64,000 nt of DNA from Candidatus Daviesbacteria bacterium (GCA_030699125.1 JAUYKM010000016.1:12845-76844); one strand, 5' to 3'. Shown: positions 5,442 to 60,641, numbered from the stretch's first letter. A program made the numbers and translations. The notes: generated by a model not told the origin, from the sequence alone.

Positions 5442-6970
5442 TCCATAGTTGCTGGAGGTTTAGTGGTGATGTCATAAACTACCCTGGAAACTCCCGGGAC
5501 TTCATTGACAATTCTGGAGGAAATTTTTTGCAAAATTTCATAGGGGATTTTGGACCAAACTGTAGTCATCACATCTTTGGACTCAATAATTCTTATTGCC
5601 ATAACTTCCAAGTGAGAGCGCTCATCACCTTTGACTGCCGTACTTTTGGTATCAGTTAAAATGGCAAAACTCATATAAACTTTATCGTAAAGATTGGCTT
5701 TTGTTACTTCCTCAACCACTATTGCATCAGCCTGTTGTTGTCTTTCCAAACGCTCTTTTGTCACTTCCCCAATAATCCGAATGGCTTGTCCAGGTCCTGG
5801 AAAAACTTGCTTGGAGACTACTTCATTTGGTAACCCCAGTTTTTCCCCAATCAATCTCACTTCATCTTTATAAAAATTTCTCAAAGGTTCCAAAAGCACA
5901 AGACTCATCTCATCCGGCAATCCCCCAACATTATGATGAGATTTAATCTTATCTGCCTTTTTGGTTCCCCTACTTTCAATCACATCAGAATAAATTGTTC
6001 CCTGGGCTAAAAACTTTACTCCCTTTAACTTTTTGGCCTCTCTTTCGAATAGTTTAATATAAAGAGCACCAATGGTTTTTCTTTTTTGCTCCGGATCTGT
6101 AATATCTTTGAGGGCAGAGAGAAACTGCTTTTTGGCATCAACAATAATGGGATTTAACCTTAGATGTTTTTGGAAAATTTGTAAAACTTCCTCTTTGGTG
6201 CCAATTCTCATCAACCCGCTTTCAATATAAATAGGATATAAATTTTTACCAATGGCTTGACCAATCAAAGCTGCCGCCACTGTTGAATCCACCCCCCCGG
6301 AAACTGCACAGATAACTTTATTATTTCCCACCTTCTGTTCTATATTTTCAATAATGGCATTAACATTGATTGATTGCTTAACGATTTTTTCTCCACAAAT
6401 ATTTTGGGCAAAGTTAATAAGAATTTTTAAACCAAAGACAGTGTGCATAACTTCCGGATGGAACTGCACCCCAAAAATCTTATTTCTTAAATCTGCCACT
6501 GCTGCTGCTTTAACAGAATCTGTTTCTCCTAAATATGTAAAACCTTTGGGGATGATCACCACGCTGTCTCCGTGACTAACCCAAACAACAGAGTTATTTT
6601 CCACGCCGGAAAGAATACCCCCTTCATTTATTATGATCAGGTTGGCCGGTCCATATTCTTTATGTCCTGAAACTACTTTACCTCCCAAAAGACGGGCTGT
6701 TAGCTGCCAACCGTAACAGATTCCAAGAATTGGAATTCCCAAACTGAAAATTTTTTTATCAATCGTGGGAGCGCCTTTACTGTATACAGATGCCGGACCT
6801 CCTGAAAGAATAATTCCAGCCACTTCATCGTCATTCCCGCGAAGGCGGGAATCCATAATAAACTTAACAGCATCTTCCGGATCAACAATCTTTACCAAAA
6901 CACCATGATCCCGAAGTCTTCTTCCAATTAAATGTGCAGTTTGTGACCCAAAATCAACTAGAGTTATCAT
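5432..6970 (-). CDS. guaA: GMP synthase (glutamine-hydrolysing)
   Basis: 512 aa; GATase GICYGWQ, PP-loop VSGGVDSTV, C-terminal ...PPATMEWE. Carries an in-frame palindromic-repeat insertion encoding MDSRLRGNDDE near the N-terminus. Confidence 0.92.
   Translation of the reverse strand: MITLVDFGSQTAHLIGRRLRDHGVLVKIVDPEDAVKFIMDSRLRGNDDEVAGIILSGGPASVYSKGAPTIDKKIFSLGIPILGICYGWQLTARLLGGKVVSGHKEYGPANLIIINEGGILSGVENNSVVWVSHGDSVVIIPKGFTYLGETDSVKAAAVADLRNKIFGVQFHPEVMHTVFGLKILINFAQNICGEKIVKQSINVNAIIENIEQKVGNNKVICAVSGGVDSTVAAALIGQAIGKNLYPIYIESGLMRIGTKEEVLQIFQKHLRLNPIIVDAKKQFLSALKDITDPEQKRKTIGALYIKLFEREAKKLKGVKFLAQGTIYSDVIESRGTKKADKIKSHHNVGGLPDEMSLVLLEPLRNFYKDEVRLIGEKLGLPNEVVSKQVFPGPGQAIRIIGEVTKERLERQQQADAIVVEEVTKANLYDKVYMSFAILTDTKSTAVKGDERSHLEVMAIRIIESKDVMTTVWSKIPYEILQKISSRIVNEVPGVSRVVYDITTKPPATMEWE
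6830..6854. repeat. GC-rich palindromic hairpin element GTCATTCCCGCGAAGGCGGGAATCC inserted in-frame in guaA
   Basis: 8-bp arms (ATTCCCGC/GCGGGAAT) around a 4-nt loop. Encodes MDSRLRGNDDE at a position where E. coli GuaA has no corresponding residues. Same family as 23340-23363, 43748-43771, 59323-59397. Confidence 0.75.
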
Positions 6971-7776
6971 GAGTTTTCCTTAATATAATTTATCATCTCT
7001 TCAAATATAAATGCGCCATGGGGCTTTATGAGTTTTTCACGACGCCAATTAGGATATTGAGTAATATCCACAAATTTCTCAGGATGCGGCATTAATCCCA
7101 AAATTCTACCTGAAGGATCCGTCACTCCGGCTATTGCATTTAAGGATCCGTTTGGATTTTCAGGATAACTTTGTATAGGATTTCCGTCGCTATCAACATA
7201 CCTAAATACCACTAAGTTCTGTGTTTCTATCTTCTTCAACGTCTCTGCGTTCCCAAGGAATTTTCCTTCCCCATGATTAACAGCAAAATGCCCTACACCG
7301 TAGTCTCCTTTAAGAAATACACATTTGCTTTTTTCATTTTTTAAATCAACCCATCTGCACTCAAAATGTCCGCTATCATTAGGAGCCAGCGTTGCATCCA
7401 TTTTTCCCATATTCCCAAAAGGCAAAAGGCCACATCTTACAAGAACCTGAAATCCATTACAAATGCCAATAATCAGTCCCCCTCTTTTTCTAAAATTTTC
7501 TATCTCATCCCTTAAAAAACTTATCAGCTCAATGGCCCAAATCTTTCCAGATACTACATCATCTCCATAAGAAAATCCTCCCGGTAAAGCCAGGATACGG
7601 AAATCTTTGAGAGTTTTAGGTCTATTTCTTAACTCGTTAATATGAACAAATTGCGGATTTCCTCCGAATTTTTTGAAAGCATAAAAAAGCTCATTATCAC
7701 AATTGGTGCCATCAGATTGTAAAATGCAAACATTGACTTTTTTCATCCAAATACCTCCATCATTGGTCTTGACCAA
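6967..7776 (-). CDS. purQ: Phosphoribosylformylglycinamidine synthase, glutaminase subunit PurQ
   Basis: 269 aa; class I GATase with GICNGFQ catalytic Cys motif. 34-nt overlap with purL. Confidence 0.88.
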   Translation of the reverse strand: MVKTNDGGIWMKKVNVCILQSDGTNCDNELFYAFKKFGGNPQFVHINELRNRPKTLKDFRILALPGGFSYGDDVVSGKIWAIELISFLRDEIENFRKRGGLIIGICNGFQVLVRCGLLPFGNMGKMDATLAPNDSGHFECRWVDLKNEKSKCVFLKGDYGVGHFAVNHGEGKFLGNAETLKKIETQNLVVFRYVDSDGNPIQSYPENPNGSLNAIAGVTDPSGRILGLMPHPEKFVDITQYPNWRREKLIKPHGAFIFEEMINYIKENS

Positions 7777-10385
7777 GCTTTTTGTAACCTATCTATATCA
7801 GTTGTAAACAAATTTTCAACCATCAACTTTTCATCTTTAATAGTTTTTCCTAATATTTCATAGGGAATCCCCTTAAATAATTTTTTGGCAATTTCTTCAT
7901 TTTTCACTTCAACAATAAAACATCCTGCAGTTTCACTTAGCAACTTTTTACCATCGACTTTAATCTTTACTCCACAGTTTCCTCCCACACACATTTCAAA
8001 GATTGTCGTAATTGGCCCCCCTTCACTGACATCATGACACGCTAAAACTTGTCCCTCTTTAATTGCTTTATAAATTTTTTCTAAGACTTTCGGTAAAATT
8101 TTTATATCTATATATGAAATTTCATTTTCCAGATCTTGTTTTCCAACTAATACAATTGTTGAACCAATCTTTTTAAAATCGGATGAAATTGTTTTTTTAG
8201 CATCGGGAATCCTCCCAAAAACTGAAATGCAAAGAGTAGGTGGACTATGTAGAACAAATCCATTTGATCCGCGATACGTTGCAGACAGACTATCTTTTCC
8301 GGAAATAACCGGAATTTTAAGCGCTTTCATAAAATCGCAAACAGCATCAACACATCTGTCTAATTTCCCTAACCATTCCTCATCAGGAAAAGGCCAAATA
8401 TAATTATTAATCAAGGATGCATTTTTATAATCACCCCCAACTGCAACATAGTTTGAGATTGCCTCTGATGCTGCCCAAATACTTCCCCAATATGGATCAC
8501 TCATAGTAAAAGCTGGATTAAGCCCGTGAGAAACAATCAGTCCATAAGGCTTATCTAAAATTGGTTTAATAACTGCGGCATCATTAGGTCCATCCATTCC
8601 AACTCCAGTAAATGGATGCAGGGCATTTGTCCCCTGCACATTATGGTCATACATCCTAAGTATCGGCTCTTTAGAATTTATATTCCCATGACTTAAAATC
8701 TTTTCTAAATGGTTTATCCACCCCTTTTTTGTCTTTGGTATGTTCAGGTGCGACCTTGACCAAGGTGCAACCTTAACATTGGTTGCGTGCATAACACGTT
8801 GTGGCAGTCCTCCGTACAGAAACTTCATCTCCAAATCTCCTACTTTTTCTTTTCCATAAAATACTTGTAGCCTTTTGCTGCCATCAAATTCGCCAATTTC
8901 AGTTGTCTCCACATTATATTTTTTACAGATCTTTACAAATTCTTTAAGGTTTTTTTTAGGAAGAACTATTAACATTCTTTCCTGTGATTCGGATACCCAA
9001 ATTTCCCAAGGTGACAAACCCTGATATTTGAGTGGAGCTTTTTCCAGATGAACTGTTACCCCTACTTTTTCTCCCATTTCTCCAATAGCAGAAGATAAAC
9101 CACCTGCTCCCAAATCCTGTACTGCTCTTATTAAGTCTTTATCTCTTGCCTCAAGTATGGCATCAAAAGTTCTTTTCTCCTCTATAGCATTTCCTATTTG
9201 TACGGCTGTTGCATTAACTTTAACAGTTTTCTCGCTCATGACAGCAGATGAAAATGTAGCACCATGTATCCCGTCTCTTCCTGTTTTTCCTCCAATCACA
9301 ACTGCCAGATCAGCTATTTTGGGTTTACCCTTTTCCGCTTTATTTCTTGGCAAAATCCCATATGATCCAACCAAAACTATTGGCTTGGCTCTAAAATCTT
9401 CGTGAAAATGAAATGAACCGTTATTGGAAGGGATACCGATTCTATTTCCATAATCCCTCACAGCTGCCACCACTCTTTTCAATATATAGTCCGGAGGTAG
9501 CGTGCCGGCAGGTAATTTATTTTTTGGTGTGTTTGGTGGAGCCAAACAAAAGATATCAGTTGATATTAAACATTTTGCTCCCTGGCCTGTTGCCACAATA
9601 TCTCTAAAAACTCCGCCAGATCCGGTCATGGCACCACCATATGGTTCAATAGCTGAGGGAGCATTGTGAGTTTCTGCTTTTCCATTTATTGCCAGTCCAT
9701 CATAAAAATCCATTACTCCTGAATTATCGACAAAAGCTGAAACTATATTTTTTTTGTGTTTATATGCTTCTTTTTTTATTCTCTCAATTAGCGGCATCTT
9801 ATTTTTTCCATCAACGACCAATTTGGCTTTAAAGGTTTTATGGGCACAATGCTCGCTCCAAGTTTGAGCCAAAGTTTCCAGTTCCAAATCTGTGGGATCT
9901 CTTTTTATTTTTTGAAAATAATTTTGAATTGTTTTCATCTCTTCCAAATTTAAGAAAAGCTTATCTTTTGATAATAAAAGTAGTTCCTTATCTTCCATTT
10001 CTCTTATAGGAACAACTGCAGTTTTTCCTACCCTTTCTTTTATTAGAAGTGTTGTTGGTTCTTTTTTTACAATATTTTCTATTAGTGGATTGAAAGCGGG
10101 CGCTTTATTTAAGTATTCCTTTGAGGAATCACAAGCAATAAGATTTACTTTTAAATCTCTGGCAGCTTTAATAATTGAGGCGACCTCCGGATTCATTACC
10201 CCCATCTTATAGGCAATTTCAATTACATTGAAAAAAATCGATTTATTAATAGTATAGGTTTGATTTATGTTTTCACAGAATAGTTTTTCAGCCAAAATTT
10301 TTGCCTGTTTTTCTGTTATTCCCTCCAAACGGTAAACTTTTGCTGTTGGATTTTTATTTGTTCTAACTCTAACAGTCTGAATCAT
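7743..10385 (-). CDS. purL: FGAM synthase PurL with fused N-terminal PurS-like domain (PurS-PurL fusion, glutaminase domain separate)
   Basis: 880 aa. The ~90-aa N-terminal region is PurS-like; the rest is the FGAM synthetase (AIR-synthase-related) core. About 140 aa longer than stand-alone small PurL. Confidence 0.85.
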   Translation of the reverse strand: MIQTVRVRTNKNPTAKVYRLEGITEKQAKILAEKLFCENINQTYTINKSIFFNVIEIAYKMGVMNPEVASIIKAARDLKVNLIACDSSKEYLNKAPAFNPLIENIVKKEPTTLLIKERVGKTAVVPIREMEDKELLLLSKDKLFLNLEEMKTIQNYFQKIKRDPTDLELETLAQTWSEHCAHKTFKAKLVVDGKNKMPLIERIKKEAYKHKKNIVSAFVDNSGVMDFYDGLAINGKAETHNAPSAIEPYGGAMTGSGGVFRDIVATGQGAKCLISTDIFCLAPPNTPKNKLPAGTLPPDYILKRVVAAVRDYGNRIGIPSNNGSFHFHEDFRAKPIVLVGSYGILPRNKAEKGKPKIADLAVVIGGKTGRDGIHGATFSSAVMSEKTVKVNATAVQIGNAIEEKRTFDAILEARDKDLIRAVQDLGAGGLSSAIGEMGEKVGVTVHLEKAPLKYQGLSPWEIWVSESQERMLIVLPKKNLKEFVKICKKYNVETTEIGEFDGSKRLQVFYGKEKVGDLEMKFLYGGLPQRVMHATNVKVAPWSRSHLNIPKTKKGWINHLEKILSHGNINSKEPILRMYDHNVQGTNALHPFTGVGMDGPNDAAVIKPILDKPYGLIVSHGLNPAFTMSDPYWGSIWAASEAISNYVAVGGDYKNASLINNYIWPFPDEEWLGKLDRCVDAVCDFMKALKIPVISGKDSLSATYRGSNGFVLHSPPTLCISVFGRIPDAKKTISSDFKKIGSTIVLVGKQDLENEISYIDIKILPKVLEKIYKAIKEGQVLACHDVSEGGPITTIFEMCVGGNCGVKIKVDGKKLLSETAGCFIVEVKNEEIAKKLFKGIPYEILGKTIKDEKLMVENLFTTDIDRLQKAWSRPMMEVFG

Positions 10386-16585: not shown

Positions 16586-18394
16586 TTAGTTGTGATTCAT
16601 CATAATAGAAAGAAGTACAGGTTTCTTTCTAATGTAGGTAATAGTTAGGGGAAGATTCAAATCCCTTATTTCTGGATTTTCATCAAAGCGTACCTGAGGT
16701 CGTTTCCTCCCTTTGGCTTCTCTATTATAACTTTTTATAAATGATCTAACCTCTGAAATTTCATCTTTTTCTAATTTATAATCAGTAAATTGCATTCTTC
16801 CAAATAAAGCAGCTGCGTTCAAAAGAAGATAAAAAACACTTGTATCAAATTCTTCTCCCGCATTATTAATCACTAAATCATTATGACCATTAATTGTTCC
16901 GATTAAGGCTATTTTTTCAACATTAGAGTCCCCACCAATAGTTTTAGAATCAAAAATGCAGCTAACACTATCTCCTTCTTGTTGTATAGCTACCAATCCA
17001 AGACTACCTAATTTAGATAACGTATTACTTGATGGTAGTAGGTCTGGAATAACCACAATTGCTCTGGATCCTTTAGTATTTGTTGCGTATCCGGCAAGTA
17101 CATCCAAGGCTACATCTTGATTAATTCCAGATTCTGCTAACTTTTTATTTAAAACCTTAAGGAGCATTTCTAAATCTTCTCCAACCACTCCAATCTCGCC
17201 CCAAGTTTTGGATTGCAATGTTGTATCTGCAGTAATTCTCGACTCTTCTGGCTGTTTTCCCAAACCCTCTGTTTTTTGCTCTATTTGCTCAACCTTTGAG
17301 GTATATATTATTTTTACTCCCTGTTTTTTTTGTTCTGCAAGGAACTCATCTTTTATTTTGCCGAGGGGGATCAATCTTGCTCTAGCTTCAGCGTTTGAAT
17401 TCATATATAAAACACCTGGCTTAACATCTTTTAATACAGCTTGCTCATCGACAAAAGACTGAGGGGATGCTGATTGGCTAATTAGTTCTTGTAATTTTCC
17501 AGTAATAACTTCCGTAGCTGGATTTTGAGGATATTTAGCCAGAAAAAAACCTGCAGCAACTAACATTCTTCTGATAAATCTATCTTGCTGATTATGACTA
17601 TATCCACTAAATGGAATGGTTTCTAAAAACTCTGCATATCCATCAGCAGCATCAGGATAAGCATCGGGATTGAAGTAAAAGTAGCGGAATAAATTTTCCT
17701 TCTCAGTAACAACCGTTTTCCAAAAATCCATTTGTAATCTAGGATGGTCTAAAAAATATTTAACAAAGTCTTTTGAGGTGTGGGGGTAATTAGCCTTTGT
17801 TTCATTATCCAAATGAGCAGCAAATCCCCAACCAAACGACCAAATATTCATTTCTCTGGTACGACTAATTGCTGCACCAAACTTTCCTTCTAAAAGAAGT
17901 CTTGAAAAGCGGGGATCCTTCCAGATATTATCATCAGTAGCCCAAGTTAGCTTATCATGCCAAGCTCTTGATTGTGGACTGACTACCTCCGCCCAATATG
18001 AAGAATATTCTCTTTCCTGCCTGAGTAAGTTCTGCAGGGAGTAATCCATTTTTATTATAATTTCTGCCTCTTCATCTGTCTGCGGAGTTTTTGTCAAAAC
18101 ATTACCCAGCCATCCTTTAAACTCCTCAGTAGTATTTTTGGCTCCAAGATATGCTGTGTCATCCTCTGCAAGAGCATATGACTCAGTTCTTGCTACCTCA
18201 GCGTATAGTCTTTTCTTACCCCTCGCCAAACGATTCGCTCCCAGGTTGAATACATATCTTTTCTCTATAGGAAGGTTAGTTTGATAAATTAGCGTTTCCG
18301 CCAAAACCAAGGCGCGGAAAGATCTGCTTAGCGCTTCATCTGCAAAAGGACGCTCTGATAAAATTTCTTGTAGCATTTGCCAACCTAAAACCAA
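16586..18394 (-). CDS. Large hypothetical protein (602 aa), no recognisable family
   Basis: Long intact ORF with no TM segment or catalytic motif I can name. W/Y-rich N-terminal half (WGFAAHLD, NPDAYPDAADGY). Confidence 0.5.
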   Translation of the reverse strand: MVLGWQMLQEILSERPFADEALSRSFRALVLAETLIYQTNLPIEKRYVFNLGANRLARGKKRLYAEVARTESYALAEDDTAYLGAKNTTEEFKGWLGNVLTKTPQTDEEAEIIIKMDYSLQNLLRQEREYSSYWAEVVSPQSRAWHDKLTWATDDNIWKDPRFSRLLLEGKFGAAISRTREMNIWSFGWGFAAHLDNETKANYPHTSKDFVKYFLDHPRLQMDFWKTVVTEKENLFRYFYFNPDAYPDAADGYAEFLETIPFSGYSHNQQDRFIRRMLVAAGFFLAKYPQNPATEVITGKLQELISQSASPQSFVDEQAVLKDVKPGVLYMNSNAEARARLIPLGKIKDEFLAEQKKQGVKIIYTSKVEQIEQKTEGLGKQPEESRITADTTLQSKTWGEIGVVGEDLEMLLKVLNKKLAESGINQDVALDVLAGYATNTKGSRAIVVIPDLLPSSNTLSKLGSLGLVAIQQEGDSVSCIFDSKTIGGDSNVEKIALIGTINGHNDLVINNAGEEFDTSVFYLLLNAAALFGRMQFTDYKLEKDEISEVRSFIKSYNREAKGRKRPQVRFDENPEIRDLNLPLTITYIRKKPVLLSIMMNHN

Positions 18395-23319: not shown

Positions 23320-23339
23320 ATGTGGATTATATCTTATTT

Positions 23340-23423
23340 GTCATTCCCGCGAAAGCGGGAATCTATATTTTATGGATCCCGCATCAAGTGCGGGATGACA
23401 GAGATCGTTGAGACGCCTCTGTC
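23340..23423. repeat. Cluster of three GC-rich hairpin repeats (GTCATTCCCGCGAAAGCGGGAATC; GGATCCCGCATCAAGTGCGGGATGAC; GACAGAG-N13-CTCTGTC) between ybaB and folD, overlapping the folD 3' end
   Basis: Perfect stems read directly. The last two units encode the folD C-terminal tail ...VTEASQRSLSSRT and span its stop codon (23384-23386). Confidence 0.75.
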
Positions 23424-24232
23424 ACATTTCTCAAAAGACATGCAATTGTTAAGGGACCAATTCCCCCAATAGTTGGACAATATAATTTGGCTTTTTGGGA
23501 AACTTCCTCTTCATTAATATCCCCATAAATTCTGGGCTGCTCATCTATTATCTCTTTCCCAACTCCAACTCCTATAACATATGCCCCATTTTTTATGTTA
23601 GATCCATTAATAATGTTTTTCTTTCCAGTTGCAGAGATAACAACACCAGCATTCTTGATAATTTTATTAGGATTTTCTGTCTTTGAATCTATCACAGTTA
23701 TACTGATTCCCTTATCTTTTAATAAATTTATTGTCGGCCCTCCTGCAGTTTTTCCTTTTCCCAAGATGACCACTTTTTTCCCTTTTAAAAAGTCTTTAGC
23801 GTTTTTAAAACTTTCATGTACTGCAAATGCTCCAATCATTTCCCACACCGCCAAGGCAGTTGCTCCTTTAAATGGTGAGTTTCCCAAAAATCCATCTACA
23901 TCTTTAGAGATAGTCACTTTTGATGAAATCTCATCAAAATCCCAGCCCTGATAGAGCGGATATTGGACAATGATTCCGTAAACTGATGCATCTCTATTTA
24001 AATTACTAACAGTTTCTAGGCATTTTTTTTCTTGATTAGAAGAAAATTCATAAAGTTTTGCCTTGATACCAATTTTTTCAGCAGTTTTTATTTTATTGTT
24101 CACATAAACTCTCGAGGATGGATTATCACCTGCCAAAATTATGGCTAAAGAGGGTTTTAAATTTTTCTTTTCTATTTCCTCTTTAAGTTTATTTAGTATG
24201 TTATCAGCAACTTCTCTTCCGGAAACTTTCAT
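23384..24232 (-). CDS. folD: Methylene-THF dehydrogenase / methenyl-THF cyclohydrolase
   Basis: 282 aa; KDVDGF motif, Rossmann GxGxxxG. C-terminal ~13 aa encoded by palindromic repeats. Confidence 0.88.
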   Translation of the reverse strand: MKVSGREVADNILNKLKEEIEKKNLKPSLAIILAGDNPSSRVYVNNKIKTAEKIGIKAKLYEFSSNQEKKCLETVSNLNRDASVYGIIVQYPLYQGWDFDEISSKVTISKDVDGFLGNSPFKGATALAVWEMIGAFAVHESFKNAKDFLKGKKVVILGKGKTAGGPTINLLKDKGISITVIDSKTENPNKIIKNAGVVISATGKKNIINGSNIKNGAYVIGVGVGKEIIDEQPRIYGDINEEEVSQKAKLYCPTIGGIGPLTIACLLRNVTEASQRSLSSRT

Positions 24233-36144: not shown

Positions 36145-36729
36145 TCAAACCTGCCTTTCTACTTTTTTTGGGGAAACCCTTCCACCCTGATGTTGTCCTC
36201 TGTATCTAGTAGTTTTTCCCTCTATCTTATGGAAGATTATATTACAAATTCTGGCTCCAAGTTGTAATTTTACAGGAAAAGGTGAAAGATTGGTAAGCCC
36301 CATTGTCAGTTTTCCTACATACCCGGGGTCTGTTTTGGAATTTAGGAGCAGTAACCCGGATCTAAAAAGTGAAGTCCTTGGGTGCAAGATAGGCATCAGG
36401 TCAGAAGGTGTATTTACTTCCTCAAAGGTTTGCACCAAGTAGTATTCTCCTGGTTTTATAGTAACCCAAACTTGATCTTCATTTTCCTCATCAAACTTAG
36501 CAACCTCTTTTGTCTCCACTCCTTTCCTTTTACCATAGCCTGCTTGTCCTGAGCTTGTCGAAGGGTCCACTTCTATATAAGCCCCGCCTTTGATAATTTT
36601 ATGTATTGATCCAAGTCTTAAATCTATACCCACCCCTTCCGGGTTTTTAAGTTCTCTCTTACCTAAATTTTTAATAAGAGAATGCTTCTTTATTCTTTTA
36701 TGAATTTCGTTTATTCCTAGAACGGACAT
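36145..36729 (-). CDS. dCTP deaminase / dUTPase-family paralog (second copy)
   Basis: [32 protein letters not shown]. The ORF-track start (36867) overlaps the upstream dcd by 170 nt. Internal Met at 36729 ([10 protein letters not shown]...) gives a ~195-aa protein of normal size. Contains an in-frame half-element GTCCTGAGCTTGTCGAAGGGTCC (36546-36568) encoding STSSGQAG. Confidence 0.65.
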
Positions 36730-37357
36730 TTTTTCTTTTCCCCCTGATATTTGATACTTCCGGTAATCTGGAACCACCATATCTATTGTTGGGTGAATTT
36801 TTGTATGACCTTTCAACAGAAGAAGATAATTTTTCAAATGAAAAAGCACAGATTGGGGATCCTTCATAAATAACCAATTTTTTTCCCTTTAGAAAAGTGC
36901 CAAATTCCAAAACCGGATGTCCATCCCAACCAGGGTCAAACCTGGCTGCAGTGGAGTGCACTACCACTCCCAGTCTGGCCAGAGAAGATTTTCCATGCAG
37001 ATGTCCTACAATATCATTTGGCAAAGTTAATCTTTCTTTGGTGGTGGCTATCACAAAATCGTGTTCTGTTAAAATAAATGGTTGGCCCATCTTTAGTTCC
37101 ACTAGTCTCATCATTGATTCCATATCTTCTTTGGTGGCAAATTTAGTATCAATGGTATTTAAACCTTCATCTGTAAAAACTCTTAATTTATTTCCCAAAT
37201 GAAAATCTATAGTAACTTCATCAACCTGACTTTCCCAATTCTTGGGAAGGGGATCAATTTTTATCAGTCCTTTCTTGATATGTTCTCTAATTGACCAATC
37301 AGGAAGAGTTCCTGAAATATCGGCAGTATTTTTTTTAGAGGTTTTTTTCCTTGCCAT
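36698..37357 (-). CDS. dcd: dCTP deaminase
   Basis: DWSIREHIKKG...IDP, TIDFHLG, GKSSLARLGVVVHSTAARFDPGW, C-terminal ...NNRYGG resemble E. coli Dcd. N-terminal ~20 aa of the track ORF may be an over-extension. Confidence 0.75.
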   Translation of the reverse strand: MARKKTSKKNTADISGTLPDWSIREHIKKGLIKIDPLPKNWESQVDEVTIDFHLGNKLRVFTDEGLNTIDTKFATKEDMESMMRLVELKMGQPFILTEHDFVIATTKERLTLPNDIVGHLHGKSSLARLGVVVHSTAARFDPGWDGHPVLEFGTFLKGKKLVIYEGSPICAFSFEKLSSSVERSYKNSPNNRYGGSRLPEVSNIRGKRKNVRSRNKRNS

Positions 37358-40785: not shown

Positions 40786-40798
40786 TTTATTAATGAGG

Positions 40799-42943
40799 TT
40801 ACTTCTCCCCTCCGGGGCTCGCAATGACAAGTTCTTCTGGTTTATCAGACTTAGGCTTTGTCCAAGAAGCAAACTTGCAGACTGGCCAGTTTTTGCAGCC
40901 GTAAAAAGTTTTACCCCTTCTGGTATGTCTGACTACAATATCCCCACCATCTTGCGGACACTTAACATCAATTATTTCCTCTAAAGCTTCTGTATGACGG
41001 CATTTGGGAAAAGTGGAACAGGCCAGAAATTTACCAAACTTCCCTATCCTTATCACTAATTCATTACCACACTCCGGACATTTTTTACCAGCCAGTTGGG
41101 GTTCTATTTTCATTTTTTCTGCTTCTTTAAATGTTAACTCCAATTTTTTCTCAAATGGCTGGTAAAATTGTCTAACGGTGGGACGCCACTGTCTTTCCCC
41201 ATTGGCTATCTCATCCAGTTCATCCTCCATCTGGGCAGTAAAAGAATAATCAACAATATCCGGAAAATATTCCACTATAAAATCATTAACAGTAAAACCT
41301 AATTCTGTTGGAATAAATCTTCTTTCCATTCGCTCAACATAAAATCTTTCTTGAATGGTAGAAATAATGGGAGCATAGGTGGAAGGCCTACCAATTCCCA
41401 ACTCTTCTAATTTTTTAATAAGTGATGCTTCATTATACCGGGGTAGTGGTTCGGTAAAATGTTGATCAGGTAAAAGTTGAATTAAATTTAGAGAATCATT
41501 TTCCAAAAGTTTTGGCAATATTTTTTGACCGGTATCTTTCTCTCCCGCTTCGCCCACGCCTTCAGCGTCGCTCTGCGCGAAGCGAGGCGAGTCATCTTCC
41601 AGTTTTTCTTTTTCATAAAGTTTTAGCCAACCATTAAATTTGATTACTGAACCAGTTGCTCGAAGAAGATAACTATCAGCAGTCACGTCAATTGTGGTTT
41701 GGTCTAAAATTGCCTCATTCATTTGACAGGCCACAAATCTTTTCCAAATTAATTCATATAACCTGATATGATCCTTATTAAATCCATTTCTGGTCCTTAG
41801 ATCCTCACTCCTGACTCCAACATCAGTCACCCTGATTGCCTCATGTGCTTCTTGAGCATTTTTGGATTTTGATTTATAAATCCTGGGTTTGGTAGGTAAA
41901 TATGATCGGCCCAAAAAATCTGCAATGAATTTGCGGACAGCAAGAATGGCCGAGGAAGATAAATTAACTGAATCAGTTCTCATATAAGTTATCAGTCCTT
42001 GTTCATATAAATTTTGCGCCACCATCATGGTTTTTTTAGCAGACATACCCAATCTGTTGGAAGCAGCTTGTTGCAGGGTAGAGGTAATAAAAGGCGGATA
42101 AGGGAAACGGCGAACTTCTTTCTGAGTGATTTTGGAAACCACATACTGAGCTTTTTCCAGATTTTTAACATGCCCATCTACCTCCTCCTTATTCTTAATT
42201 TCCAGCTTCTTGCTATTTTGTTCTATTAGGATAGCAACAAAGTGATTTTTGTCATTCTGAGGCGAAGCCGAAGAATCTCTCAACTTGTTTGAGTCTCGCA
42301 TTCGCGAGAGATCCTTCACTTCGTTCAGGATGACACTTTGTGTCAATTCCGCCTCAATACTCCAATACTCTTGCGCTTTAAAAGCCTTAACTTCCCTTTC
42401 TCTTTCCACAATCAACCGCAAAGCCACTGACTGAACCCTACCAGCAGAAAGTCCTTTTTTAATTTTTTGCCAAAGCAGGGGGGATAATTTATAACCAACT
42501 AACCGATCCAAAACTCTTCTGGCCACCTGGGCATCCACTAATTTCAGATCTATTTGACGGGGTTGATTAAAGGCCTCTCTTATAGCTTCTTCGGTAATCT
42601 CATGAAAAACAACACGCTTTATGTCTTCACTTTTCACTTTTCCCTTATCACTTATCACTTGTTCCAAATGCCAGGCAATTGCCTCACCTTCCCGGTCAGG
42701 GTCGGTGGCAAGCCACAATGTATCTGCACCCTCCATCTCTTTTTTCATCTCATTAACTCTTTTTCTTTTATCTCTGGGGATAACATATTGGGGTTCAAAA
42801 TCATGCTCTATATCTACCCCAAGCTCTGATTTTGGCAAATCCCTCACATGTCCCATTGAGGCCTCAATAGTGTATTTATCCCCCAAAAATTTTTGCAAGG
42901 TCCTGGCTTTGGTAGGTGATTCCACGATTACTAAATTATTCAT
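40799..42943 (-). CDS. topA: DNA topoisomerase I
   Basis: Toprim VIVESPTKARTLQKFLG, catalytic and C-terminal CxxC zinc ribbons. The true start is probably Met at 42943 (MNNLVIVESP...). The track ORF starts at a TTG (43000) and reads through an upstream palindromic repeat (ILRYTQNDREK). Two in-frame repeat insertions at 42251-42334 and 41540-41593. Confidence 0.9.
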   Translation of the reverse strand: MNNLVIVESPTKARTLQKFLGDKYTIEASMGHVRDLPKSELGVDIEHDFEPQYVIPRDKRKRVNEMKKEMEGADTLWLATDPDREGEAIAWHLEQVISDKGKVKSEDIKRVVFHEITEEAIREAFNQPRQIDLKLVDAQVARRVLDRLVGYKLSPLLWQKIKKGLSAGRVQSVALRLIVEREREVKAFKAQEYWSIEAELTQSVILNEVKDLSRMRDSNKLRDSSASPQNDKNHFVAILIEQNSKKLEIKNKEEVDGHVKNLEKAQYVVSKITQKEVRRFPYPPFITSTLQQAASNRLGMSAKKTMMVAQNLYEQGLITYMRTDSVNLSSSAILAVRKFIADFLGRSYLPTKPRIYKSKSKNAQEAHEAIRVTDVGVRSEDLRTRNGFNKDHIRLYELIWKRFVACQMNEAILDQTTIDVTADSYLLRATGSVIKFNGWLKLYEKEKLEDDSPRFAQSDAEGVGEAGEKDTGQKILPKLLENDSLNLIQLLPDQHFTEPLPRYNEASLIKKLEELGIGRPSTYAPIISTIQERFYVERMERRFIPTELGFTVNDFIVEYFPDIVDYSFTAQMEDELDEIANGERQWRPTVRQFYQPFEKKLELTFKEAEKMKIEPQLAGKKCPECGNELVIRIGKFGKFLACSTFPKCRHTEALEEIIDVKCPQDGGDIVVRHTRRGKTFYGCKNWPVCKFASWTKPKSDKPEELVIASPGGEK
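41540..41593. repeat. GC-rich imperfect hairpin inserted in-frame in topA (encodes DDSPRFAQSDAEGVGEAGEKDTG)
   Basis: CTCTCCCGCTTCGC...GCGAAGCGAGGCGAGTC. Local GC far above the AT-rich flanks; arms CGCTTCGC/GCGAAGCG. Confidence 0.55.
42251..42334. repeat. Composite ~84-nt long-arm palindromic element inserted in-frame in topA
   Basis: Left arm GTCATTCTGAGGCGAAGCCGAAGAATCTC pairs with the reverse complement of right arm GAGATCCTTCACTTCGTTCAGGATGAC. Central small palindrome TCTCGC-ATTC-GCGAGA. 28 codons encoding ...SVILNEVKDLSRMRDSNKLRDSSASPQNDKNH. Confidence 0.75.
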
Positions 42944-42961: not shown

Positions 42962-43005
42962 GTCATTCTGAGTGTAACGAAGAATCTCTTGCGAATGCAA
43001 GAATC
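42962..43005. repeat. Half-copy of the long-arm element plus small palindrome (GTCATTCTGAGTGTAACGAAGAATCTC TTGCGAATGCAAGAATC) in the topA 5' region
   Basis: Sequence similarity to the 42251 element left arm; TTGC-GAAT-GCAA hairpin. Confidence 0.65.
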
Positions 43006-43033
43006 ATTATACAGAAGAAGTCAAATTTTTTAG

Positions 43034-43288
43034 TCATTCAAAATCCGAATCCAAAACCTGGGGATTAACTTTTTCTAACTCTTGCTTTAAATCAGTTGAT
43101 GAGTCAAACTGAAAAGTTTTGGGAGCATTCGGGGTGGGGATTGGCGTAGGATTAGAATTTATTTCACTTTGATTATTTGAAGAACTTTCAGGACTAACTA
43201 ATTGTTTAGCTTGATTTCGCAAAGGCCCAAATACAACTAACCCTATTCCTACTATTATTATAATACTTATAATTATTATCTTTTTCAT
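43034..43288 (-). CDS. Hypothetical small membrane-anchored protein
   Basis: 84 aa; N-terminal hydrophobic helix (IIIISIIIIVGIGLVVF) then S/N/P-rich tail. Confidence 0.4.
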   Translation of the reverse strand: MKKIIIISIIIIVGIGLVVFGPLRNQAKQLVSPESSSNNQSEINSNPTPIPTPNAPKTFQFDSSTDLKQELEKVNPQVLDSDFE

Positions 43289-43724: not shown

Positions 43725-43771
43725 GTCATCCCGACGATTGATAATTAGATTCCTGCATTTGCAGGAATGAC
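43725..43771. repeat. Palindromic repeat pair (degenerate GTCATCCCGACGATTGATAAT + GATTCCTGCATTTGCAGGAATGAC) in the intergenic region downstream of the clp-like gene
   Basis: Second unit is a perfect hairpin (ATTCCTGC / GCAGGAAT). Same family as 59373-59397. Confidence 0.7.
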
Positions 43772-46753: not shown

Positions 46754-47820
46754 TAGTTGCCGCTACCCAAGTTTTGGACCAGACCGAAGATCTCCATTTT
46801 CAGGAGGTTGGCAGAGATTGTGGCTGCCGACAGATTTAGCATTCTTGAAATTTCATCAATATGCAACGTTTCATTTTCCAAACATTCCAAGATTCTTTTT
46901 TCTTCTTCTGTTATTTCCCTTAATTCTTGATTCTTAATTCTTAATTCTTTCTTTAATCCCATCTCATCCAAAATCTCACCGGCATCAAAAACCGCCTTTG
47001 CCCCTGTTTTTATTAAATCTATCGGCCCTCTTGATAAACTAGAGGTAACCGGGCCAGGCACGGCAAAAACTTCCTTGCCCCCCTCAACTGCTAATCTGGC
47101 AGTGATTAATGATCCTGAATCGGAGGCTGCCTCGGTGACCAGAATTGCCTTCGATAAACCGGCGATAATTCTATTCCTGGAGGGAAAATTACCCGGGAGG
47201 GAGGGGTAAGAAGGAGGAAATTCAGACATCACTGCCCCAAAACCTTCACTGATTTTTCTGGCCAAATCACGATTTTCCGGAGGAAAAATGTTGTTTAACC
47301 CCCCTCCTAAAACTGCCAGAGTCCTGCCACGATTTTCAATGGCAGTCTGGTGTGCCATTCCATCTACGCCTCTGGCCAGACCTGATACAATTGTTAATCC
47401 GGCTGAGACCAAATCTTGAACAAATTGTTTGGTCACGGCCCGACCATAACCGGTAATCTTTCTGGTTCCCACCACCCCGATGGCATTTTCATCTTGGGGT
47501 TTAATCTCTCCTTTGTAATATAAAACAATTGGCGGATCGTAAATCTCTTTTAAAAGTCTAGGGTAGCTTTCATCATAAATGGTCAGCCATTTAATACCTG
47601 ATTTTTGGATTGAATCTGCATAAGTTTCCAGGTCTAATTTCTGACGCGTTTGAACCAACAATTCCGCCACATTTTGGGGAATCCCAATCTTTCTTATTTC
47701 CCCAATATCCGCTTCCCAAGCCAATTTTGGATCTTTAAAATAATCCAAAATTGCTTTTAGCCTAATCGGCCCCAGGCCATCGATGCTATGTAAAGCCATC
47801 AGGTATGGAATATTATTCAT
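46741..47820 (-). CDS. dprA: DNA processing protein DprA (SMF family)
   Basis: 359 aa; Rossmann-like DprA core GVVGTRKITGYGR..., GLARGVDGMAHQ, C-terminal wHTH. Confidence 0.88.
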   Translation of the reverse strand: MNNIPYLMALHSIDGLGPIRLKAILDYFKDPKLAWEADIGEIRKIGIPQNVAELLVQTRQKLDLETYADSIQKSGIKWLTIYDESYPRLLKEIYDPPIVLYYKGEIKPQDENAIGVVGTRKITGYGRAVTKQFVQDLVSAGLTIVSGLARGVDGMAHQTAIENRGRTLAVLGGGLNNIFPPENRDLARKISEGFGAVMSEFPPSYPSLPGNFPSRNRIIAGLSKAILVTEAASDSGSLITARLAVEGGKEVFAVPGPVTSSLSRGPIDLIKTGAKAVFDAGEILDEMGLKKELRIKNQELREITEEEKRILECLENETLHIDEISRMLNLSAATISANLLKMEIFGLVQNLGSGNYCRV

Positions 47821-53739: not shown

Positions 53740-54859
53740 ATTGAGATATGATTTCTTCTTTGGTTTTTTCCTTTTGTCTAATCTGTTGCGCAAGTTTAGG
53801 ATTCCACATTGCTCCTGTTGCTGATTGGACCACATCAGCACCTGCTGCCCTATACTCCAGATAATCTTCCACATCCATTACTCCGCCTACTCCAATTATG
53901 GCAAAATCAGCATTAAGTTTTTTCTTAATTTGTTTTAACCTTTTAACCATATCCAGTCCTGCCCATTTTATAGATGCTCCACAAATTCCTGCAGTTAGCC
54001 TGCCTTCTCCCGGCAAAGCCTGATTACCATCCGCATCTAAAACTTTAGCAGGAATGGTGTTTATGGCAGAAATACCGGAAATGTAGGGCAAAATACTTTT
54101 GATAATGCCCTCCAGAAGTTCTTGTTGTTCTTTTGAAAAGTAACCAATCTTGATTAAAAGCGGTATCTCACCTATCTTCTCTTTTGTTTTTTTACAAATA
54201 TTTAAAACTGCACCCGGGGAATAACAGACAATTCCCTCATTTGCCACATTTGGACAAGACAAATTTAACTCAATTACCTTTGCTCCAGCTTCCATAGCAA
54301 ATTGTGCTGTTTTAGCAAAATCTTTATGATAATCATCATCTCTAAATCCTGCCTGGATAGTTCCTACCACAGAGGCAATCAGAAGTTGACCATTGCCTGC
54401 TGACTCGATGGCCTTTTTCATATCTTCCATCCAAACTTGCGCTTGGGGTGAGGGATTACCAAACGAGTTAGTGATACTAAAATCCTTAGCATCCTTTTCA
54501 GTATTTTTACTGGCTATTAAAGGTTTTTTTGCTCTTTGCAAAGTTAGATCTCCCTCCACATCAACAAATAAAACATTGGGGTGTTTATTGGAAGGAAACT
54601 CTATTGATCTTCTGGTTTTATAGTGGATTACATCAAAACCTTTTTCAAAGGCAGCTTTACAAAATTTGGAGTTAAGTAGCGGTCCGGATGGGATGCCAAA
54701 AGGAGTATTAATTTTAAATCCCAAAAAATTATATTTAGGCCTGTCCTGAGCGTAGTCGAAGGACTCTCTTAAATCCACTCCATCTGCCAAATCACCAAAA
54801 GGACCTTGTTCATAATTTTCATCATAACTTTTTTCAGGATCATAAAAAGGCTTATTCAT
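53720..54859 (-). CDS. pyrD: Dihydroorotate dehydrogenase (class 1-like) with N-terminal extension
   Basis: 379 aa; ELNLSCPN, GVGGV. N-terminal ~50 aa carry an in-frame half-element GTCCTGAGCGTAGTCGAAGGACTCTC (54743-54768) encoding RESFDYAQDRP. Confidence 0.8.
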   Translation of the reverse strand: MNKPFYDPEKSYDENYEQGPFGDLADGVDLRESFDYAQDRPKYNFLGFKINTPFGIPSGPLLNSKFCKAAFEKGFDVIHYKTRRSIEFPSNKHPNVLFVDVEGDLTLQRAKKPLIASKNTEKDAKDFSITNSFGNPSPQAQVWMEDMKKAIESAGNGQLLIASVVGTIQAGFRDDDYHKDFAKTAQFAMEAGAKVIELNLSCPNVANEGIVCYSPGAVLNICKKTKEKIGEIPLLIKIGYFSKEQQELLEGIIKSILPYISGISAINTIPAKVLDADGNQALPGEGRLTAGICGASIKWAGLDMVKRLKQIKKKLNADFAIIGVGGVMDVEDYLEYRAAGADVVQSATGAMWNPKLAQQIRQKEKTKEEIISQFSPAAV

Positions 54860-55948: not shown

Positions 55949-56003
55949 GATGGGAGTTTAACATACTCTTGATTTAAAATTAAGATAAGAGTATAAACAA
56001 AAT

Positions 56004-57060: not shown

Positions 57061-57063
57061 ATA

Positions 57064-57095: not shown

Positions 57096-57144
57096 AATTG
57101 GCCTAATCAGGCTTTTCTGTGTAAACTTAACCCTAACCACGACA

Positions 57145-57173
57145 CTTGTAAATCAGCTTAACTGTTAATATAA
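57145..57173 (+). promoter_or_regulatory. Sigma70-like promoter (TTGTAA-17-TATAAT) for the 57182 gene, implying a near-leaderless mRNA
   Basis: -35 TTGTAA at 57145-57150, 17-nt spacer, -10 TATAAT at 57168-57173. The ATG at 57182 is only ~8 nt past the -10. Confidence 0.5.
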
Positions 57174-57181
57174 TCCACCCT

Positions 57182-58552: not shown

Positions 58553-58595
58553 CCTATACAATATCTTTTCCCCAATGTTAAAATAAGAACAACTT

Positions 58596-60641
58596 ATGCT
58601 TGAGAGAATTATTCCTTACTGCTTTTATGTCCTATTTTTTCTGACCCCTCTTTTTTGGACTTCGAAAAATTATGAACTTTTTGAGTTTAATAAAATGCTT
58701 TTGGTTTATAGTTTTACGGTAATAATTGTGGGTGTATGGATTCTCAAAATGATCCAGCAAAAATCCTTTATTTTTAAAAGAACTCCCCTGGATCTTCCTC
58801 TGCTTTTATTTTTATTAGCGAACATTTTAGCAACTATTTTTTCCATTGATAAACATGTCTCAATTTGGGGCTATTATTCCAGATTAAACGGCGGACTCAT
58901 ATCCATCATTTCCTACCTATTATTATACTGGGCCTATTGTTCCAATTTTGATGGCAAAAATATCAAAAAATTATTTTATTTTGCTTTTGCCTCCGGTACC
59001 ATCATTTCCCTCTGGGGAATTTTGGAGCATTTTGGTGTCTCCCCTTCCTGTATTATTTTAAGAGGAGAACTCAATGCCTCCTGTTGGGTGCAAGATGTTC
59101 AAGCAAGAGTTTTTGCCACCTTAGGTCAACCCAATTGGATGGCTGGATATTTAGCCATGCTAATCTTCCCTGCTCTGTACTTTTTGCTCACTGCCAAAAC
59201 TAAGGTTCAACAAGTTAGCAGTTACTTGTTACTTGTTACTTTCTATCTGGCTTTCACCTTCACCTACTCCCGGGGTCCCACATTGGGTCTGATTGGAGGA
59301 TTTATTGTTTTTATTCTACTGTCATCCCCGCGTAGGCGGGGATCCAATTCCGAATCTAGCTACTTTAATTGGATTCCTGCATTCGCAGGAATGACAAAAG
59401 GGATAATAGTTATTTTGTTATCCTTTCTAGCCATAAATCTCCTTTTTGGTTCTGCCCTCACAAACTTCAAATTGGTCTCCCAGTTTGCAGCACCCACAAG
59501 ACCCACTATCTCTTTACCACCATCTTCCGTAACTCAGCTGGAACAAGGAGGCACAGAATCAGGACAAATTAGATTTATTGTCTGGCGGGGAGCTTTGGAT
59601 ATTTTCCGCCATTACCCCATCTTTGGCTCAGGATTAGAAACCTTTGCCTATGCTTACTACCAGTTTAGACCGGTTGAGCATAACCTAACTTCGGAGTGGG
59701 ATTTTCTTTATAACAAAGCTCATAATGAGTATTTAAATTACTTGGCTACTACTGGTTTAATAGGATTTTTGACTTACATGGGAGTAATCGGAACTTTTGT
59801 AATATGGTGTGTTAAGGGAATAATGAATAAAGAATTAAGAATTAAGCTTAATTCATCATTCTTAATTCTTACCGCTCTATTTGCCTCCTACATCTCCTAC
59901 CTAATTTACAACTTCTTCCTTTTTTCCGTTGTCATTATTGCTCTCTTTTTCTATATTTTTCCTGCCATTGCTTTTGTGGCAACTGATTCCACAAAACAAC
60001 TGAAGTTTCCAAAAAAACTTTTCACTTCTTTTATATACCGTCGTCCTGCCTATACAAAAGCAACTCAAGTTATTATTGTCGTTTCCATCTTCTATCTTCT
60101 ATTCTCCATCTTCCAACTTTGGTATACAGATACCTTATTTGCCCAAGGACAAAGAGCCTCTGATGCCGGCAATCCTGGTAGGGCATATAATCTTCTCACC
60201 ACTGCTCATGAGATAAGAGGTGATGAGCCTTTTTATCAATCTGAACTTAGCCTTGCTGCTGCTTCGGCTGCCGTGGCTTTAGCCGAAATAGGTGATGCTT
60301 CCTCCTCAGCCACATTAAAAAATGAAGCTATTTCTACTATTGAACATGTTCTAAAAAACAATCCTAATAATGTCTCATATATGCGAGCTGGTATTAGAAC
60401 CTATTTTGAGCTCTCAAGCATAGATGAAAGTTTTATTGATGATACACTTACGGTCATCGACCAGGCGATTCAGCTTGCTCCCACTGATCCAAAGCTTTAT
60501 TACAATAAGGCCTTGATCTTACAGCTGAATGGAAAGGATGCAGAGGCCATTGAGACTTTACAGAAAGCCATTGAGCTTAAACCAAATTATGTCCAGGCTA
60601 TTGATCAACTAAATGAAGCCACTGCCTCAGCCAGACCATGA
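58596..60641 (+). CDS. O-antigen-ligase-like (Wzy_C) polytopic membrane protein with C-terminal TPR repeats
   Basis: 681 aa, about 12 TM; YNKAHNEYLNYLATTGLIGF (O-antigen ligase motif); C-terminal TPR-like NPNNVSYMRAG...YYNKALILQLNGKDAEAIETLQKAIELKPNY. Two in-frame palindromic repeats at 59323-59397. Confidence 0.75.
   Translation: MLERIIPYCFYVLFFLTPLFWTSKNYELFEFNKMLLVYSFTVIIVGVWILKMIQQKSFIFKRTPLDLPLLLFLLANILATIFSIDKHVSIWGYYSRLNGGLISIISYLLLYWAYCSNFDGKNIKKLFYFAFASGTIISLWGILEHFGVSPSCIILRGELNASCWVQDVQARVFATLGQPNWMAGYLAMLIFPALYFLLTAKTKVQQVSSYLLLVTFYLAFTFTYSRGPTLGLIGGFIVFILLSSPRRRGSNSESSYFNWIPAFAGMTKGIIVILLSFLAINLLFGSALTNFKLVSQFAAPTRPTISLPPSSVTQLEQGGTESGQIRFIVWRGALDIFRHYPIFGSGLETFAYAYYQFRPVEHNLTSEWDFLYNKAHNEYLNYLATTGLIGFLTYMGVIGTFVIWCVKGIMNKELRIKLNSSFLILTALFASYISYLIYNFFLFSVVIIALFFYIFPAIAFVATDSTKQLKFPKKLFTSFIYRRPAYTKATQVIIVVSIFYLLFSIFQLWYTDTLFAQGQRASDAGNPGRAYNLLTTAHEIRGDEPFYQSELSLAAASAAVALAEIGDASSSATLKNEAISTIEHVLKNNPNNVSYMRAGIRTYFELSSIDESFIDDTLTVIDQAIQLAPTDPKLYYNKALILQLNGKDAEAIETLQKAIELKPNYVQAIDQLNEATASARP
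59323..59397. repeat. Two palindromic hairpin elements (GTCATCCCCGCGTAGGCGGGGATCC and GGATTCCTGCATTCGCAGGAATGAC) inserted in-frame in the O-antigen-ligase-like gene
   Basis: Perfect 8-9 bp arms. Encode SSPRRRGSNSESSYFNWIPAFAGMTKG within a loop region. Confidence 0.75.

Follow-up and report, generated by a model that had tools for sequence, protein, structure and literature searches.

The DNA analyzed here is a single stretch of 64 kb (the window, to which all counts for this genome refer) from Candidatus Daviesbacteria, a lineage of the candidate phyla radiation (CPR) with a tiny genome, and the subject is a family of short GC-rich hairpins with an unpaired tag, which lie inside or at the ends of several of its genes. 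The G+C content of the window is 34-40%. As judged from their Pfam domains, the genes concerned code for GuaA, FolD, TopA, a PyrD-like protein (DHO_dh), a dCTP-deaminase-like (Dcd-like) protein and a Wzy_C/O-antigen-ligase-like (Wzy-like) protein with TPR repeats, which bears out the names assigned to them in an earlier note on this DNA. Every hairpin copy listed in that note was found in the sequence, and the coordinates hold as well, apart from the final two copies (59321-59345 and 59372-59395), which are shifted by about 2 nt. One further arm, 40797-40828 (-), was missing from that list (one match versus none expected). In total, tagged GC-rich hairpins occupy ten loci of the window and amount to about 13 arms, where about zero would be expected by chance.

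All arms follow the same layout, in which a GTC tag that remains unpaired is followed by a GC-rich hairpin, with a stem beginning with AT, and by a C-rich tail. Most of them are combined into inverted pairs with the tags pointing outward, yielding units of 47-84 bp (23340-23399, 42251-42334, 43725-43771 and 59321-59395), which reach fold z-scores of -3.9 to -5.8 relative to shuffles when treated as single-stranded DNA. The arms of the short type are distributed over two complete dimers, a degenerate one and a singlet. The singlet (6829-6856, + strand, with the hairpin proper at 6830-6854) lies inside guaA, which is encoded on the - strand, and reads cGTC-ATTCCCGC-GAAG-GCGGGAAT-CCA. The first dimer occupies the 3' end of folD (23339-23400, with arms at 23340-23363 on the + and 23374-23399 on the - strand; z -5.3), while the second, of 75 bp, is located in the Wzy-like gene (59321-59395, with the two arms mentioned above on the + and - strands, respectively; z -5.8). 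The degenerate dimer (43725-43771; z -3.9) lies 2 nt downstream of the stop codon of a ClpB-like gene and combines a left arm decayed to GTCATCCCGACG (+) with an intact right arm of the short type (43748-43771, -).

A second, long-arm type occurs at topA, where an 84-bp dimer with outward tags lies inside the gene (42251-42334, with arms at 42251-42281 on the + and 42306-42334 on the - strand; z -5.0). A single arm with an auxiliary small hairpin (TCTTGCGAATGCAAGA) is found 18 nt upstream of the ATG start codon at 42943 (42962-43005, +), and another single arm, GTCATTGCGAGCCCCGGAGGGGAGAAGTAACC, at the 3' end of the gene (40797-40828, -). The pattern GTCATyCTGAr...GAAGrATC of this type matches three times in the window versus none expected, a figure that is post hoc because the pattern was composed after its copies had been seen. 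The arm at 40797-40828 represents a fourth long arm, belonging to a sister subtype (GTCATTGCGAG..GAAGTAACC). Two further loci are half-elements which have the sequence GTCCTGAGC..TCGAAGG in common with the long type and show fold z-scores of about 0. One is a non-folding remnant inside the Dcd-like gene (36546-36568, +), the other a remnant with an internal deletion (GTCCTGAGCGTAGTCGAAGGAC) inside the pyrD-like gene (54743-54768, +). The tenth locus is a weak candidate, an AT-rich hairpin of the form GTC-ATTC..GAAT-CCA overlapping the stop codon of an open reading frame (ORF) at 43034-43288 (43030-43055, +); it is the best match of the covariance model described below outside its training set (17.7 bits, E 0.016) and may be a decayed copy. 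Another tagged hairpin at 18148-18182 was not counted, because it is AT-rich and falls within the chance expectation of 0.3 per window.

The short type was searched by a blind scan for perfect GC-rich hairpins and with a degenerate pattern compared with 100 dinucleotide shuffles. The scan returned six perfect 8-bp hairpins that fit ATyCCyGC-N4/5-GCrGGrAT and are all accompanied by GTC on just one of their sides, and the pattern GTCATYCCYGC-N4-GCRGGRAT gave five matches against 0.00 in the shuffles. A tag-first alignment of the six copies shows no variation in GTC, in AT, in the central CC/GG or in the C following the stem, and ATGAC/GTCAT occurs in every arm. The tag is CGTC in two and TGTC in four copies, the loop has 4 nt in five and 5 nt in one, and the tail reads CCA in four and CTA in two. 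In this alignment, 94.6% of the stem cells are paired, compared to 20-52% if the 3' partners are slid, and in two of the eight stem pairs both partners are exchanged (from T-A to C-G and from C-G to T-A). A covariance model of the kind suggested in the earlier note separates the six copies, which score 33-47 bits, from the rest of the window, which contains no more good short copies, as the next match reaches only 17.7 bits. A formal repeat search also groups the short copies (family D1, pair I2), in agreement with the claim that they form a family. Searches against Rfam at gathering thresholds and for tRNA and tmRNA yielded no matches, indicating that the elements are neither a known RNA family nor tRNA-derived repeats. 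A CRISPR array was rejected as well, since the copies occur as inverted pairs or singlets at irregular spacing and not as direct arrays.

The comparison of the host proteins with their orthologs shows that the copies in GuaA, TopA, PyrD and the Dcd-like protein are lineage-specific in-frame insertions, as previously claimed, and that unrelated orthologs do not carry the same residues. In GuaA, the hairpin is read as MDSRLRGND and adds seven residues in comparison with 57 of 59 further orthologs in the alignment. The motif IMDSR[LI]RGND..VAG is common to the window protein and P0003 (85% identity), P0002 shows RSFGLRPQDD at the position of the insert, and in the remaining 57 orthologs, which are up to 84% identical, the loop is seven residues shorter. 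On the DNA level, the empty sites of two relatives (L003 and L004) consist of 18 nt, whereas the window has 39 nt at the same place, and an independent assembly from another run (L001) exhibits the same insertion. A third relative (L002) carries a long-type arm (GTCATCCTGAGGGCGAAGCCCGAAGGATC) whose tag is at exactly the position of the tag of the short arm in the window. Solved structures of GMP synthase show a gap at the insert, which is predicted by AlphaFold2 (mean pLDDT 85) to form the end of a helix (residues 31-43) and the coil before a strand (residues 52-56), with a pLDDT of 70 for the insert block and of 85-95 for the flanking blocks. As a separate observation, L004, one of the relatives with an empty guaA site, contains a long-type dimer in-frame in its gene for the FGAM synthase PurL (7419-7528, read as HSERSEESL...LRDSSLIARNDK); its PurL comprises 957 residues, while that of the window is shorter (7743-10385, 880 residues).

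The remnants in the PyrD-like and Dcd-like proteins had at first been suspected to be chance matches because they do not fold, but this was ruled out by the ortholog comparison, in which a relative turned out to have the full element in pyrD. The window remnant is read as ESFDYAQDRP and adds five residues, while a 94%-identical PyrD ortholog reads IAEEP. On the DNA level, L126, whose ortholog is 94% identical, lacks any element at this site, whereas L127 has a complete one of 51 nt at the position of the remnant, and the alignment shows that the window copy consists of both ends of the 51-nt element with its center deleted. The ortholog P0287 contains ESFDSLDSTRDKSAQDRP at the same site. The Dcd-like remnant is read as PSTSSGQAG where the nearest representative, P0361 (76% identity), reads GEVQ, and adds five residues relative to P0361 and ten others. 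Two side observations concern the same proteins. The Dcd-like ORF (36145-36867, -; 240 residues) is over-extended at its 5' end, as all homologs start at M47 (36729), which yields a protein of 194 residues. Moreover, five PyrD orthologs (P0260, P0289, P0293, P0298 and P0304) carry an N-terminal MLKTPFYDRRSQKGSxLKEPFYDP with an insert of about 15 residues between duplicated PFY motifs, which may be another small element, in this case with a target duplication.

In TopA, the 84-bp dimer is read as SVILNEVKDLSRMRDSNKLRDSSASPQNDKNH, including the peptide VILNEVKDL...QNDK, and adds about 27-32 residues to a loop that has 37 residues in the window protein and ten in TopA of Escherichia coli. Among 120 aligned orthologs, the loop was read in the top 70 shown, most of which have a short version (EAELE-x-F.ATLIE). 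The element of the window is also present in P0123, P0124 and L128, while other palindrome-derived peptides occupy the same loop in further orthologs (VIASEAKQS..PRNDK, VILGRSKATTPES..GQARMT and HLRGET..HLGGE), and a second site, located after T(I/V)DV, is filled in L149, L151, L156 and L157. As judged from these sequences, the TopA loop is an insertion hot spot across Daviesbacteria and has been occupied many times, either independently or in succession. The terminal VIASPGGEK of TopA and its TAA stop codon are provided by the arm at 40797-40828, at the 3' end of the gene. An over-extension of topA from a TTG start codon across the upstream arm at 42962-43005, read as ILRYTQNDREK, had been attributed to the elements; it does arise in naive longest-ORF calling but is absent from the deposited protein, which begins at the ATG at 42943 (P0121, 714 residues).

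The FolD tail is likewise derived from an element, as proposed in the earlier note: the right arm of the dimer provides the last five codons (LSSRT) of folD (23384-24232, -) and, from its loop, the TGA stop codon, and the Pfam domain of FolD ends at residue 276 of 282. Reading through the same dimer on the other strand generates a spurious ORF of 50 residues (23320-23472, +; MWIISYLSFPRKRESIFYGSRIKCGMTEIV..., with SFPRKRES...GMT). In the Wzy-like gene, the 75-bp dimer is indeed in-frame within an ORF of 681 residues, as had been claimed, being read as SSPRRRGS...WIPAFAGMT, and is covered by the Wzy_C match. Whether it was inserted is less clear, because the available orthologs are distant (33-42% identity) and show gaps of 11-16 residues at the dimer, around which the alignment is ambiguous; these data are no more than suggestive of an insertion. 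A typical short arm is free of stop codons in five of the six reading frames (54 of 72 arm-frames overall), which accounts for the high frequency of in-frame survivors.

By published definitions, the elements belong to a superfamily of CGTC/SRM repeats together with the dRS3/NTS repeats of Neisseria, the Ssn-related motifs (SRM) and RPE-4, -6 and -7, the latter being Rickettsia palindromic elements (RPEs). As judged from its sequence, the short type is a CGTC-tagged repetitive extragenic palindromic (REP) element of family CGTC-1, which is defined by a CGTC or TGTC tag, an 8-bp stem starting with AT, a 4-nt loop and mostly a CCA tail, and whose members are mostly dimers and in some cases located inside ORFs (PMC3733652). 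Di Nocera, De Gregorio and Rocco (2013) equated CGTC-1 with dRS3 of Neisseria and RPE-6 of R. conorii, and CGTC-4 with RPE-4 (PMC3733652). NTS is a 28-nt extension of dRS3 which is cut as single-stranded DNA by SsnA, a small nuclease of the GIY-YIG type; cleavage is controlled by the three bases upstream of the palindrome and binding by the C that follows it, and ssn genes across bacteria are typically flanked by NTS/SRM-like motifs (PMC11893778, 2025). The guaA copy matches the NTS consensus CGTCATTCCCGCGMAVGCGGGAATCYRG in 27 of 28 positions, and none of the six short copies deviates from it in the bases critical for SsnA, the upstream GTC and the C that follows the palindrome. Identity extends to 30 of 30 positions with a site on a Sphingomonas plasmid and to 29 of 29 with N. 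gonorrhoeae. The published SRM regex recovers three of the six short copies (versus 0.1 expected), excludes the variants with a CCTGC stem and detects no long type, and is thus too narrow for this lineage.

The resemblance to RPEs that had been suggested for the window elements was supported, even more literally than proposed, since CGTC-1 is equated with RPE-6 in the literature, the ATGAC signature is present, and sites are occupied by more than one element group. Published RPE-4, -6 and -7 carry ATGAC, orthologs contain differing RPE groups at one locus, and an O-antigen-ligase gene is among the targets in R. japonica (PMC3767692); different element groups at one locus recur here in the GuaA, PyrD and TopA orthologs. 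The host lineage is new, but the family is not special to it, given the occurrence of the exact 24-mer pattern in many phyla. The exact pattern, GTCATTCCCGC-N4-GCGGGAATC, was found in at least 120 stretches of species-representative genomes, often in inverted pairs 30-110 bp apart, and extends to about twenty phyla beyond CPR and Proteobacteria. Its hosts include Bacteroidota, Chloroflexota, Planctomycetota, Nitrospirota, Acidobacteriota, Verrucomicrobiota, Elusimicrobia, several CPR groups and one metagenome-assembled genome of Nanoarchaeota, and among isolate genomes Neisseria, Sphingomonas and Povalibacter. The exact 24-mer is also present in at least 120 viral stretches of IMG/VR, some with arrays of up to 13 copies, and at 16 places in the Microcystis phage MaAM05; viruses may carry the hairpins between hosts.

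The closer surroundings of the host lineage were surveyed in Microgenomates DNA from the neighborhood of topA orthologs, about 1 Mb in total (88 sequences, composed of 87 loci and the window). In the 1.09 Mb scanned, 78 tagged hairpins were counted, whereas a Markov control gave 16. Of these 78 hits, 45 are located inside long ORFs, some being plainly chance matches, and the distribution is patchy, as 51 of the 88 sequences contain none. A possible but doubtful extension of these observations is that a selfish system of hairpins and an Ssn nuclease is active now, or was so recently, in CPR bacteria and reshapes essential proteins in their surface loops, those of TopA and GuaA being repeatedly used as landing sites. 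The 24-30-nt hairpin is 97-100% identical between CPR and Proteobacteria. If true, this would imply repeated transfer across phyla of a nuclease of about 100 residues and its hairpin, possibly borne by phages, and would place the system among the most widely distributed mobile DNA lineages known.

A candidate for the partner enzyme, for which the earlier note had made no proposal, is encoded in one of the relatives, L151, which is syntenic with the window over the genes for PBP2, DprA, a small ORF, ClpB-like and TopA (63, 67 and 63% identity for PBP2, DprA and TopA, respectively). Between its PBP2 gene and dprA, a gene of single-stranded DNA uptake, L151 contains a 540-bp hairpin-ssn-hairpin cassette and a dimer (2110-2652), while the corresponding junction in the window is empty, the two genes overlapping by 4 nt (47817-47820). 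The ORF in the cassette codes for a putative Ssn nuclease of 98 residues, as suggested by its matches to an Ssn profile (1e-35) and to the GIY-YIG domain of Pfam (PF01541, 1.2e-16) and by 51% identity to a GIY-YIG protein of Methylotenera whose gene is flanked by exact NTS motifs. It is flanked by tag-outward CGTCATTGCGAG..CGAAGCAATCC hairpins, which are of the same subtype as the arm at the 3' end of topA in the window, and then by a dimer of the same type. This ssn-adjacent dimer is nearly identical to the dimer inside topA of L151, including an identical right arm of 46 nt, which suggests that the topA dimer arose as a recent copy within one genome. The long arms of the window align with the L151 arms, having GTCAT, GAr and GAAG in common and showing complementary stem triplets. 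A different small GIY-YIG ORF (106 residues; Pfam GIY-YIG 7e-18, with a weak T5orf172 match) is present in two more distant relatives (L178, 6975-7292, and L179, 99-416).

We consider it likely that the CGTC/TGTC-tagged REP-like hairpins of this CPR genome are small non-autonomous selfish units with Ssn as the most probable partner. According to this explanation, the single-domain GIY-YIG nuclease of about 100 residues would bind the hairpin in single-stranded DNA and nick it at the tag, and new copies would arise from this nick, probably by a repair or copy process and not by classical cut-and-paste. Ssn would thereby mobilize the elements, and the genome studied here would encode such an enzyme or would once have done so. 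With scant intergenic space, many hits would fall inside genes, and survivors would be stop-free, frame-keeping copies in permissive surface loops or termini. The outcome would be added peptides such as MDSRLRGND and VILNEVKDL...QNDK, presumably translated and tolerated, or new stop codons at the 3' ends of genes.

Several points weigh against this explanation. No GIY-YIG gene was detected in the 64 kb of the window by Pfam searches of the host genes and 20 small ORFs, with the Ssn profile or with GIY-YIG queries, and IS200/RAYT queries likewise retrieved no mobilizing gene. No two copies in the window are identical, so that the elements may have been inserted long ago and the system may have died out in this genome. 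The comparison of filled and empty sites reveals no target duplication in guaA or pyrD, and host codons were replaced, with 39 nt taking the place of 18 nt in guaA and 27 or 51 nt that of 12 nt in pyrD, which is not what a simple insertion model predicts. Nor does the proposed mechanism explain why the short type in the window and the long type in L002 occupy exactly one and the same guaA site. To our knowledge, there is no organism in which an Ssn nuclease was demonstrated to carry out transposition, and no GIY-YIG enzyme is known to join strands. Finally, Bertels and Rainey assigned the same Neisseria 21-mer, ATTCCCGCGCAGGCGGGAATC, to a different enzyme, as the REPIN of a Group-2 RAYT.

The latter assignment raises the alternative that the elements are REPINs mobilized by a RAYT, a REP-associated tyrosine transposase of the HUH/Y1 type, instead of Ssn. 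The inverted-dimer architecture is indeed that of REPINs, and Y1 transposases occur in the lineage, as exemplified by a gene in L154 (4406-5095; Pfam Y1_Tnp, 1.1e-7). However, the tag is CGTC or TGTC rather than GTAG, in no species did Di Nocera et al. encounter a RAYT with CGTC repeats at its flanks (PMC3733652), and the window contains no Y1 transposase according to a homology search with two queries. Moreover, a perfect palindrome of its own, GTACACCTGAGAGGTGTAC, borders the RAYT-like gene of L154 on either side (4378-5132) and is absent from the window. It follows that the CGTC type goes with Ssn in this lineage, and we regard mobilization by a RAYT as improbable. The palindrome and the RAYT-like ORF of L154 constitute a second, unrelated hairpin-repeat system in Microgenomates, and the HLRGET..HLGGE peptide in the TopA loop of P0129, P0133, P0167 and P0189 looks like a translation of GTACACCTGAGAGGTGTAC (CAC CTG AGA GGT for HLRG). 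[quoted passage not shown] As each of the supposed inverted repeats forms a hairpin of its own next to an unpaired tag, and thus bears the signature of REPs (PMC3733652), this origin appears very improbable.

A different kind of explanation, which is compatible with mobilization by Ssn, regards the elements mainly as hairpins useful to the host and kept under selection, and not as selfish mobile DNA, either as signals for transcript 3' ends or stability, or for an Ssn-dependent control of incoming single-stranded DNA and recombination of the kind proposed for NTS in Neisseria. It would fit the intergenic copies, which are separated by just a few nucleotides from the 3' ends of upstream genes (folD, the gene for the ClpB-like protein, the ORF at 43034-43288 and topA), as known for REPs (PMC3733652), the maintenance of stems by two-sided pair changes, the modulation of transformation by SsnA and NTS in Neisseria (PMC11893778) and the position of the L151 ssn cassette next to dprA. 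Still, the copies inside guaA, topA, pyrD and the Dcd-like gene cannot serve as 3'-end signals, the remnants in pyrD and the Dcd-like gene do not fold, and the presence of the elements varies even between close relatives, down to the 94%-identical PyrD, with more than half of the surveyed sequences (51 of 88) devoid of them. A mainly host-serving role is considered unlikely. As for an artefact of assembly or contamination, or chance similarity, the occurrence of an identical 24-30-mer in unrelated phyla could point to a technical sequence, but the shuffles predict zero matches, the guaA insertion recurs in the independent assembly L001, the motif is present in the isolate genomes of Neisseria, Sphingomonas and Povalibacter, and the reading frames are intact across the inserts, leaving a practically negligible probability for this case.

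Compared to the known systems, the window elements reproduce all features of CGTC-1, i.e., tag, stem, loop, tail, inverted dimers and copies both near gene 3' ends and inside ORFs. They differ in that CGTC-1 was published for five phyla without any CPR (PMC3733652), in the presence of a related element with long arms (GTCATTCTGAG..CGAAGAATC), which contains an internal loop as well as an auxiliary hairpin and falls outside the four published families, and in a share of copies inside genes that appears high. The latter also applies to the comparison with NTS, only 2% of which are inside genes in N. meningitidis (PMC11893778), whereas six of the ten window loci are in or overlap coding sequence. 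The likeness to NTS and SsnA consists in the consensus match, the three copies fitting the SRM regex, the invariant SsnA bases and the hairpin-ssn-hairpin cassette of L151, while the window lacks ssn and the Ssn of L151 is flanked by the long type with a TGC stem and not by canonical NTS. With RPEs, the elements have in common the in-frame location in exposed regions of housekeeping proteins, ATGAC, mixed element groups per locus and the hit in an O-antigen-ligase gene, with the sequence relationship being taken from published equivalences (PMC3733652, PMC3767692). The host, however, is a free-living or episymbiotic CPR bacterium and not a member of the Rickettsiales, the units are of 47-84 bp versus roughly 70-190 bp in RPEs, and RPE-1 to RPE-3 are unrelated. 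The GTAG-type REPs and REPINs mobilized by RAYTs also show tagged hairpins, inverted doublets, one cognate small nuclease gene flanked by repeats and no target duplication, but differ by the GTAG tag, in place of the C/TGTC of the window, and by the HUH/Y1 enzyme fold. The MITEs entering ORFs in Coxiella burnetii (PMC5896051) and the Correia/NEMIS elements are similar as small non-autonomous repeats that can lengthen or alter proteins and create spurious ORFs, whereas MITEs have longer terminal inverted repeats, typically target duplications, and an origin from DDE transposases, none of which is seen in the window. Literature searches returned no report of such elements in CPR or Patescibacteria. 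New are thus the CPR host lineage, the target genes (GuaA, the TopA hot spots, PyrD and the Dcd-like protein), the long-arm subtypes and the ssn cassette in a CPR relative.

These elements have consequences for the annotation of CPR genomes, as they yield over-extended starts (the TTG-initiated topA ORF), spurious small ORFs and element-derived C-termini and stop codons (folD and topA), and they should be masked or modeled in the respective pipelines. What spreads the CGTC-type REPs and the RPEs has been an open question since 2000, and the ssn cassette of L151 together with its topA dimer represents a compact pair that can be tested in vitro. Ssn nucleases are under development as site-specific cutters of single-stranded DNA, and CPR bacteria would add further pairs of enzymes and motifs, e.g., those of the long-arm types. 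A known kind of selfish DNA is now seen in a new lineage and with new target genes, and tagged hairpins free of stop codons would represent a steady source of short loop insertions in the core enzymes of such gene-dense genomes.

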